Notes: a model not told the origin generated them from the letters alone. A stretch of 32,000 nucleotides of DNA from Candidatus Baldrarchaeota archaeon (GCA_019056805.1 DXJG01000003.1:27712-59711), one strand, 5' to 3'; shown: positions 4,781 through 13,149, counted from the first letter of the stretch. Numbers and translations are program-made.

Positions 4781-5022
4781 GTGATAATCCCGGTCCGATA
4801 CTGGCGCTCCAATTGAGCTTAGATGGGGCGCCAGCGGAAAGCTTTACATGCGGGAAATTAATCGCTGATAAGTGGGAAGAATTTGCACGACGTGTAAGAC
4901 AAGGCGAAGATCCAAAACAAGTATTAGACGACTTAGGCATTAAACGATATTGTTGTAGAAGAATGCTTCTCAGCCACGTAGACCTAATAGATGAAATCTT
5001 AGATTTTAGCCTACCCACCTAG
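4781..5022 (+). CDS. rpoN: DNA-directed RNA polymerase subunit N (Rpo10), spliced: join(4781..4799,4841..5022), 66 aa
   Basis: SD GAGGTG (4768-4773) and GTG at 4781. Exon 1 encodes MIIPVR plus T; exon 2 begins GC TTT ACA TGC. The join gives [18 protein letters not shown]...[11 protein letters not shown], the canonical Rpo10 with a Zn-binding CxxC and CC. The ORF-track call at 4771 reads through the intron and lacks the first Cys. Confidence 0.93.
4800..4840 (+). other. 41-nt BHB-type intron in rpoN pre-mRNA
   Basis: Central helix UCCG(4794-97)/CGGA(4835-38), 3-nt bulges AUA(4798-4800) and AAG(4839-41), 11-bp inner stem CUGGCGCUCCA/UGGGGCGCCAG (one G-U). Cleavage after the 2nd nt of each bulge restores the Cys codon T|GC. 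Unspliced frame stops at TGA 4814-4816. Confidence 0.9.
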
Positions 5023-11155: not shown

Positions 11156-11337
11156 ACCAAAACTCTTAACATTTTTATTTATATTTTATGTAAAAACTAC
11201 AAAAAATATGTTCTTTTATGTAAGGATTACACGTAAAGTATTAAAAGGATTATAAAATAGTAAGGTCGATACTATTTTCGCTTCATTAACTTAAAGAGAA
11301 AATCAAAAATTATTGAATTTTATAGGAGGCTATTGAA

Positions 11338-13149
11338 ATGGCTCTCAGACAACCAATTTGCGTTGTACTTGGCCATATAGACCATGGGAAAACAACTCTA
11401 CTTGATAAAATTCGCGGAACAGTAGTTCAGTTAAGAGAAGCCGGGGGCATAATCTAGCCAGACAGCTCTCTGGCTAGATGCCAAACCCAACATATAGGAG
11501 CATCGTTCCTTCCAGCCGAAGTCATAGAAAAAATATGTGGTAAACTTTTAGAAAAATTTAATATTAAAATTACAATTCCAGGAATTTTAATTATAGATAC
11601 ACCGGGTCACGAAGCTTTTTATAATCTAAGAGCTCGTGGGGGAGCTGCAGCAGACTTCGCCATCCTTGTAGTTGATGTCATTGAAGGATTTCAAACACAA
11701 ACCTGGGAGTGTATAAATATTTTAAAATCCAGACGGGTACCTTTCCTTGTAGCTGCAAACAAGATAGATAGAATTCCAGGATGGCAACCTAACCCGGGAG
11801 CACCTTTTCTTGAATCTTTTAAGAAACAAAGTCCTCACGTTCAAAAATTTCTAGACGAAAAAGTCTACGAAATCATGGGTTCACTATCAACAGAAGGTTT
11901 TCAAGCCGAAAGATTTGATAGAGTTAAAGATTTTACAAAAACAGTTGCTATTATTCCAACAAGTGGCAAAACAGGTGAAGGCATACCCGAACTTCTTGCA
12001 GTTTTAGCCGGTTTAACTCAACGTTATATGAAAGAGAAATTAAAAGTTGTAACAGGTCCTGGAAAGGGAGTTGTTCTGGAGGTTAGAGAAGAACCCGGAT
12101 TAGGTTTGACTCTTGACGCCATTATATACGATGGTATCGTAAGAAAGGGAGACATAATCGTAGTTGGCGGTCTAGATGGTGTAATAGTCTCCCGAATCAG
12201 ATCTCTTCTCCAACCCAAACCTCTTGATGAAATAAGAGATCCAAGAGATAAATTTAATCCAGTTGATCAAGTTGTCGCAGCAGCTGGCGTTAAAATAGTG
12301 GCCCCAGATCTTGAAGGGGCTGTTGCTGGGTCGCCGATACGAATTGTCTGGGATGAATCAATAGTTGAAGAAATTGAAAAAGAAGTTGAAGAAGAACTCG
12401 AAAAAATAAGAATATCAACTGATAAAACAGGAACAATCCTTAAAGCTGACACTCTCGGTTCTCTAGAAGCTATAGTCAACTATTTTAGAGAAAGAAATAT
12501 TCCGATAAGAATGGCTGATGTCGGTGATGTTTCAAAAAGAGACATAATGGAAGCTATTGCAGTAAAAGAAAAGGATCCATTCCTCGCCGCCATCCTAGCT
12601 TTTAATGTAAAAGTTCTTCCTGATGCTGAGGAGGAAGCTAGACGCCATAATATACCAATATTTAAGAGCAACATTATATATAGGCTTTTCAACGACTACG
12701 AGGACTGGTTAATAAAGAAAAGAGAAGAACAAAAGAAAAAGGAACTAGAATCCCTTATAAGACCTGGAAAATTCAAAATATTACCCGGGTATGTGTTCAG
12801 GAGAAGTAAGCCGGCAATAGTCGGTGTCAAAGTTCTTGCTGGCAAAATACAGCCAAAATATTCACTAATTAACTCAGACAATCAGAAAGTAGGGTCAATA
12901 CTTCAAATACAAGATAAAGGGCAAAACATTAAAGAAGCTACAAAAGATATGGAAGTTGCAGTATCAATTAAAGGGCCAATTGTTGGACGACATATTAAAG
13001 AAGGGGACGTACTATATGTAGATGTTCCTGAATCCCATGCAAGAATATTATTAACAAAGTTTAAAAATGATCTAACAATTGATGAAATCGAAACTTTGCA
13101 GGAATTGATTGAAATAAAGAGAAAAGAAAAACCCTTCTGGGGAACATAG
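11338..13149 (+). CDS. infB: Translation initiation factor 2 (aIF5B), spliced: join(11338..11451,11485..13149), 592 aa
   Basis: SD AGGAGG and ATG at 11338. [27 protein letters not shown] (G1), EAGGI|TQHIGA (G2) after removing 33 nt, IDTPGHEAF (G3), ANKID (G4). Frame is continuous into the ORF-track fragment 11875..13149. Confidence 0.95.
11452..11484 (+). other. 33-nt BHB-type intron in infB pre-mRNA
   Basis: Outer helix GGG(11443-45)/CCC(11486-88), central helix GGCA(11446-49)/UGCC(11479-82), bulges UAA(11450-52) and AAA(11483-85), perfect 10-bp inner stem UCUAGCCAGA/UCUGGCUAGA. In-frame TAG at 11455-57. Canonical cleavage joins ATA|ACC (Ile-Thr). Confidence 0.92.

Follow-up and report, generated by a model that had tools for sequence, protein, structure and literature searches.

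How can an archaeon make a core translation factor from a gene whose reading frame is closed by a stop codon after 39 residues? The question is raised by the aIF5B gene of an uncultured Asgard archaeon of the Baldrarchaeia, which lies in a stretch of 32,000 nucleotides that was analysed as a whole (hereafter the window). By reading of translations, we take the row of genes in the window to be S28e, L7Ae, NDK, aIF5B, S6e and aIF2-gamma, presumably a conserved archaeal order. The aIF5B gene itself occupies positions 11338-13149 of the plus strand, with an ATG at 11338 and a stop codon at 13147-13149, as read from the sequence and its translation. A Shine-Dalgarno-like AGGAGG located 8 nt upstream supports this ATG as a maintained translation start. 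Exactly one internal stop, a TAG, is found when the frame is translated and it falls inside an insert of 33 nt; with the insert set aside, the gene consists of 592 codons without any further stop or frameshift. In the read-through product the Pfam domains GTP_EFTU, GTP_EFTU_D2, IF-2 and GTP_EFTU_D4 are all intact and the GTP_EFTU match continues across the insert.

The in-frame TAG had been claimed to limit the unspliced message to a short peptide, and translation bears this out: such a message codes for 39 aa only, followed by UAG. The next in-frame start, at 11875, opens an ORF of 424 aa that is devoid of GTPase motifs, as had also been described, and the called product in public collections is exactly this ORF. 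The suspicion that the gene is mis-annotated stands in so far as the call is truncated; the pseudogene label that was part of the same suspicion was not seen. The genome is a metagenome-assembled genome (MAG) of 18 contigs, 91% complete and with 3.6% contamination. A search of it for an intact second copy of the gene, named earlier as a finding that would speak against the claim, returned none: one aIF5B was found, the 100% self-match, a count that is limited to the assembled part. Based on the analysis reported here, we propose that the insert represents a bulge-helix-bulge (BHB) pre-mRNA intron of the splicing-endonuclease type. We consider this reading highly likely, the splicing itself being predicted from DNA sequence and from comparison with relatives.

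Fold of the insert and predicted spliced product

Folding of positions 11425-11510 gives one dominant structure, whose MFE and centroid forms coincide in a canonical helix-bulge-helix-bulge-helix (hBHBh') motif (Table 1). Its energy is -30.7 kcal/mol (z = -4.16) and none of 200 shuffled sequences was as stable. In pre-tRNAs the 3' bulge adjoins the helix formed between the two exons and the 5' bulge adjoins the intron helix, and cutting takes place after the second nucleotide of each. The strand arrangement of the aIF5B motif is that of the tRNA BHB matches in the same genome. Applying the definition of the motif as quoted in preprint 10.64898/2026.10.13.758758, we find two bulges, here UAA and AAA, on opposite strands around a GGCA/UGCC helix, an architecture kept in 8/8 distinct sequences. 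The flanking helices comprise 3 bp (outer) and 10 bp (inner), where at least 2 bp each in the pre-tRNA arrangement are called for. The fold and its coordinates agree exactly with the original prediction, according to which the 33-nt insert and its flanks make up a complete BHB with a perfect 10-bp hairpin.

Table 1. Features of the aIF5B locus; positions are counted from the first nucleotide of the window.
Feature	Position	Strand	Basis or remark
Shine-Dalgarno-like AGGAGG	11324-11329	+	read from sequence; 8 nt 5' of the aIF5B ATG
Exon 1 of aIF5B, 38 codons, P-loop GHIDHGKT to ...REAGGI	11338-11451	+	translation
Outer helix h, 5' strand GGG (exon 1), partner 11486-11488	11443-11445	+	fold; G-C in 8/8 distinct sequences
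Central 4-bp helix H, 5' strand GGCA (exon 1), partner UGCC 11479-11482 (intron)	11446-11449	+	fold
5' bulge UAA, predicted cut 11451/11452	11450-11452	+	fold; cut rule tested on a tRNA of this genome
Predicted BHB intron, 33 nt, with in-frame TAG 11455-11457	11452-11484	+	sequence, fold, comparison
Inner helix h', perfect 10 bp 11453-11462/11469-11478, 6-nt loop 11463-11468	11453-11478	+	fold
3' bulge AAA, predicted cut 11484/11485	11483-11485	+	fold
Exon 2 of aIF5B, 554 codons and stop, TQHIGA... (G2/switch I) to C-terminus	11485-13149	+	translation
Outer helix h, 3' strand CCC (exon 2)	11486-11488	+	fold, covariation

What would cleavage at these sites yield? Removal of 11452-11484 in silico, with each cut placed after the second bulge nucleotide, joins GGC AUA to ACC CAA and gives an aIF5B of 592 aa. 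The predicted exon junction RNA reads ...GGGGGCAUA joined to ACCCAACAU, and the spliced protein reads REAGGITQHIGA, as in Asgard orthologues that have no intron. Removal restores the G2/switch-I motif GGITQHIGA in register with these orthologues, and intronless orthologues of other Asgard families show GGITQH without a gap at the insert site. This is the outcome that had been claimed for canonical cleavage, namely the conserved IF2/IF5B motif in a frame like that of genes lacking the intron.

A strict scan of the genome (1.92 Mb, both strands), accepting only a central helix of 4 bp, an inner helix of 8 or more Watson-Crick pairs, an outer helix of 2 or more pairs and an intron length of 26-60 nt, returned 27 BHB motifs versus 10-11 in shuffled genomes, where the strict motif turns up by chance at roughly 3 per million positions. 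Because this rate is low and the aIF5B motif occupies a site at which its removal re-creates a conserved motif in frame, a chance occurrence is very unlikely. A looser genome-wide scan (5-bp inner and 2-bp outer helix) was uninformative, with 15177 matches versus 12107 in a shuffled genome, and a loose test for ORF restoration performed no better than random positions (514 passed versus 550 controls). Both were replaced by the strict motif and by checks of the junction peptides. The initial ORF filter overlooked the aIF5B intron as exon 1 is just 38 codons long.

Other classes of intervening sequence were also tried. A group I or group II intron is rejected on size, 33 nt against a ribozyme core of hundreds of nucleotides, and an Rfam search of 11250-11650 gave no family match at E up to 1. 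An intein is equally rejected: the insert amounts to 11 codons with a TAG among them, and the version in a sister family contains TGA as well as TAG.

Conservation of the insert and of its exons

Comparison with the orthologues of sister genomes, suggested earlier as a check, found the insert, with its pairing kept, in each of the order's five genomes at one codon boundary, and five metagenome contigs carry it too. Within the genus, all four genomes (including the one studied here) have a 33-nt insert with a TAG at the shared codon boundary, and the three congeneric MAG records come from different isolates and studies. The sister family, represented by one genome, has an insert of 30 nt with a very different stem, TGA and TAG inside it and AGA as the 3' bulge. 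When 201 Asgard genomes were searched with the N-terminal region, these five were the only ones with the insert among the matches listed. A pattern scan of metagenome contigs retrieved 30 stretches, comprising the 5 aIF5B carriers, 3 of them with new sequence variants, and 25 chance matches.

The covariation alignment holds 10 sequences in 8 distinct rows, all from one order. In each of the 8 distinct sequences 17/17 base pairs are kept, compared with 16-40% pairing when the 3' partners are slid along the sequence. Compensatory changes on both sides are seen in four pairs of the inner helix, including a C-G/U-G/U-A series, and the central helix shows two changes, both from G-C to G-U, with pairing at 100%. 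As a single order supplied the rows and the compensatory changes mostly distinguish just two lineages, these represent few independent events. The loop is the most variable part, with an identity of 17-67% between congeners against 81-85% for the exons. Among the relatives it is structure rather than sequence that is conserved, the pattern that characterizes a BHB intron.

Has the stop-bearing insert simply inactivated aIF5B, leaving a decaying pseudogene or a truncated remnant of 424 aa? The annotation looks the part, inasmuch as ORF callers and public collections offer no product that contains any of the GTPase motifs. The substitutions tell against such a history. Exon 1, located upstream of the stop, differs from relatives by 13-21 synonymous and 2-4 non-synonymous codon changes in 38 codons, and the first 100 codons of exon 2 by 35-53 synonymous versus 4-16 non-synonymous changes; judged by these counts, both exons, including exon 1, are under purifying selection. 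Decay is equally at odds with an insert that persists across two families, in five genomes, as well as in five metagenome contigs, with 592 codons that have acquired no other stop or frameshift, with four intact aIF5B Pfam domains and with the fact that this is the sole copy found in the genome. We therefore regard a dead gene as very improbable. The exon flanks are also informative about the motif that they help to build. The exon codons that contribute to it, GGG GGC AUA and ACC C, are invariant in carriers, while nearby synonymous sites vary, and orthologues without the intron use other synonymous codons at the same positions. Such a double constraint, by codons and by pairing, is what a BHB spanning exon and intron predicts.

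Splicing machinery and other interrupted genes

Does the organism encode the enzymes that this reading calls for? The genome contains two EndA paralogues (two PF01974 matches above the cut-off; C9:197851-198417 and C9:13755-14363, minus strand) and one RtcB (a single PF01139 match of 608 bits; C9:161691-162998), and thus both the endonuclease and the RtcB-type ligase. By reading of their sequences, the catalytic Tyr/His/Lys region would be of the usual kind in one EndA paralogue and would lack the His in the other, a combination that fits a broad-specificity enzyme; EndA is probably an (alpha-beta)2 heterotetramer of this type. The same type is present where cbf5 introns occur (PMC10485636).

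The tRNA genes provided a control for the cut rule. A BHB of like arrangement is found on contig C9 at 448302-448327, and its removal by the same rule produces a clean 77-nt tRNA-Arg(TCG); run without intron mode, ARAGORN finds the spliced form and misses the unspliced gene. Over all contigs of this 91%-complete genome ARAGORN reports just 18 tRNA genes, of which 12 have introns. Multiple or non-canonical introns probably conceal the majority of its tRNA genes. These numbers fit the heavily interrupted, intron-rich tRNA genes that have been published for Asgard archaea (PMC11291895; preprint 10.64898/2026.10.13.758758). Two of the calls deserve correction: a gene reported as tRNA-SeC is tRNA-Arg(TCG) after removal of its BHB intron, and the 52-nt 'intron' of tRNA-Phe is really two introns.

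Further protein genes of the genome, rpoN, glyA (at two sites at least) and fbp, are restored by the cut rule of the aIF5B intron. In rpoN a 41-nt GC-rich canonical BHB with an 11-bp inner helix follows MIIPVR (window 4800-4840, contig C10:32511-32551). Just downstream of the BHB the Pfam RNA_pol_N match sets in at profile position 7, and removal gives the junction IIPVRCFTCGK. The glyA gene (SHMT; C6:43039-44212, minus strand) is in pieces. Canonical 26-nt BHBs at 44097-44122 and 44187-44212 leave SHMT-like junction peptides when removed, and a break in the Pfam match falls at about 43401-43431; this one gene probably has three introns. A putative fbp carries a BHB of 49 nt whose inner helix has 13 bp (C17:208921-208969) near the 3' end of an open frame of 364 codons, its restoration resting on ORF continuity. 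The cbf5 gene, the classic host of an mRNA intron in archaea, is found just upstream of the window (C10:25410-25751) as a single open frame of 364 aa and is uninterrupted.

Inserts are also found in the P-loop of aIF5B, in other Asgard lineages. In all four genomes of one genus (g8) a frame-shifting insert of 29 nt interrupts the P-loop at GHIDHGK/T (L013:1478-1506, L015:1478-1506). It folds into a 9-bp hairpin and a relaxed BHB, with 3 of 4 central-helix pairs and no clear outer helix, and its removal restores aIF5B ORFs of 589-605 aa. Here aIF5B appears to have gained an intron independently. Similarly, a genome of about 4.5 Mb from another Asgard family (G031) has a 30-nt AT-rich insert with an in-frame TAA within the P-loop codons, GHIDHG/KT (L047:581-610); the motif is BHB-like with an imperfect central helix, and removal restores an ORF of 613 aa. 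Taken with rpoN, glyA and fbp, the independent P-loop introns suggest that BHB introns in coding genes may be common, and they may be much commoner than has been assumed.

These genes also help to weigh the idea that the TAG is decoded, for instance as pyrrolysine or by a suppressor, and that the 33 nt are translated as an 11-residue insertion in switch I. Both versions of the insert, 33 and 30 nt, are multiples of three and keep the frame, as read-through would require, whereas introns of like geometry elsewhere in the genome and in aIF5B of other Asgard lineages shift it (26, 41 and 29 nt). TAG moreover ends 203 of the 1002 long ORFs of the genome (about 20%) and is an ordinary stop here, and a decoded TAG would leave the TGA of the sister-family insert to be dealt with. 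From one relative to another the hypothetical peptides diverge strongly, yet no base pair is lost, and the additional residues would adjoin the conserved G2 threonine of the GITQH motif. We give read-through hardly any credence. Little more than a superficial likeness favours programmed bypassing in the manner of phage T4 gene 60, with take-off before the UAG and landing 33 nt downstream aided by the hairpin: a stop does lie close to where take-off would occur, and it is followed by a stable hairpin. There are no matching take-off and landing codons, however, as AUA AUC precedes the stop and GCC AAA precedes ACC. Exon-intron pairing and two 3-nt bulges, conserved in exact BHB geometry and shared with the tRNA introns of the genome, are not needed for bypassing, which we judge exceedingly unlikely.

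The least probable explanation is that the 33 nt are absent from the DNA of the organism: the genome is indeed a metagenome-assembled draft, but the contigs of two DNA runs, one of which may be its source, carry the insert with 0 differences and no joined form listed, as do, in variants that keep the pairing, three congeneric MAGs, one MAG of the sister family and five metagenome contigs. Two other runs, X3 and X4, matched just short parts of the stretch and are uninformative for the insert. Among the runs listed for the gene and the region none was of RNA, and those of DNA were metagenomes from subsurface and marine sites. A segment of about 40 nt at 11743-11787 of the window was matched by several other metagenome contigs at much higher depth and with 3-5 differences, which we interpret as strong conservation of this part of the GTPase domain, common to other archaea in the samples, and not as a repeat.

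A BHB intron is the only reading that fits all tests, given the geometry of the motif, the compensatory changes, the 30-nt version of the sister family, the gapless orthologues without intron, the selection on exon 1, the single gene copy and the presence of two EndA paralogues and RtcB. To this extent the comparative tests support what the original prediction had proposed, and splicing itself is what we infer from them.

Known systems, proposed mechanism and implications

A close precedent is the cbf5 pre-mRNA intron of Crenarchaeota (Desulfurococcales and Sulfolobales), whose splicing has been shown experimentally (PMC2738675, PMC10485636). Like the aIF5B insert, it is a short BHB-type intron within protein-coding sequence, limited to a clade and missed by gene callers. 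The tRNA splicing endonuclease cuts it and the exons are ligated, in lineages with a two-subunit (alpha-beta)2 EndA, and we propose likewise for aIF5B. The two differ in that the cbf5 motif has been described as a relaxed BHB (PMC10485636), whereas that of aIF5B is fully canonical, and in that the evidence is experimental for the crenarchaeal intron and drawn from sequence for the Asgard one. A second precedent is the HVO_1309 mRNA of Haloferax volcanii, in which, as PMC10485636 relates the findings of PMC7714728, a BHB is cut by EndA and spliced RNA forms as the major product. By the same account this too is an mRNA carrying a BHB, from a euryarchaeon with a homodimeric alpha2 enzyme and in a gene unrelated to aIF5B. 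In the literature searched, cbf5 of Crenarchaeota and HVO_1309 of Haloferax were the only endonuclease-spliced archaeal mRNAs found, and we found no report of an aIF5B intron or of BHB introns in Asgard protein-coding genes. A review considers that more endonuclease-spliced archaeal mRNAs probably remain to be found (PMC10485636).

Archaeal tRNA BHB introns (PMC11291895; preprint 10.64898/2026.10.13.758758) share motif and cut rule with aIF5B, as seen for the tRNA-Arg of this genome, and the same enzymes are proposed to act on both. Unlike them, the aIF5B intron resides in an mRNA, the exon halves of its motif are bound by codons as well as by pairing, and the unspliced precursor can be translated, into a product of 39 aa. 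Eukaryotes offer a more distant parallel. In the splicing of HAC1/XBP1 mRNA, IRE1 makes the cuts and an RtcB-type ligation follows, performed in animals by the RtcB ligase, the whole serving as a regulated stress switch. This unconventional mRNA splicing has been reviewed (PMC13149111). It resembles the case proposed for aIF5B in being non-spliceosomal, protein-only and directed by structure-defined cuts, with an unspliced message that gives a different or truncated product. IRE1, however, is unrelated to EndA and cuts in stem-loops rather than in a BHB, and its action is regulated, whereas aIF5B shows no sign of regulation.

How might aIF5B then be expressed? We propose that the transcript folds at 11443-11488 into hBHBh', with exon 1 providing GGG and GGCA, exon 2 CCC, and the intron UGCC and the 10-bp hairpin. 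EndA would cut after the second nucleotide of each 3-nt bulge (11451/11452 and 11484/11485), and RtcB would join the exons and probably circularize the 33-nt intron. Production of aIF5B would proceed from the spliced mRNA only, while ribosomes engaged on unspliced RNA would halt at the UAG after 39 residues. The intron may go back to a single gain in the order's ancestor and would have been splicing-competent ever since.

What are the implications of this model? As the intron interrupts the switch-I motif, no functional aIF5B would result without splicing, and cutting and rejoining of the mRNA by the enzymes of tRNA splicing would almost certainly be obligatory. The case stands out by its host gene, a core translation factor, and by its Asgard lineage, and the intron is apparently not the sole one of its kind in the genome but one of several. 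A broader proposal is that EndA-dependent splicing of mRNAs is genome-wide in Baldrarchaeia, with a dozen or more housekeeping messages for translation, transcription and central metabolism in need of EndA and RtcB; we see this as evenly balanced between true and false. If true, it would mean an Asgard archaeon with routine, protein-catalysed splicing of coding transcripts, in which the output of core genes such as aIF5B is possibly coupled to the capacity for tRNA splicing. As databases hold a stump of 424 aa in place of the protein, completeness estimates, phylogenomic marker sets and metabolic reconstructions of these lineages will be distorted. Asgard archaea are the group closest to eukaryotes, and the predicted reach of tRNA-type mRNA splicing extends, in one of them, to a universal translation initiation GTPase. 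Comprising a short RNA substrate together with RtcB and the two subunits of EndA, the aIF5B case makes a concrete and testable system in which the origin and persistence of introns can be studied, and one that can address the interplay of such introns with coupled transcription and translation.
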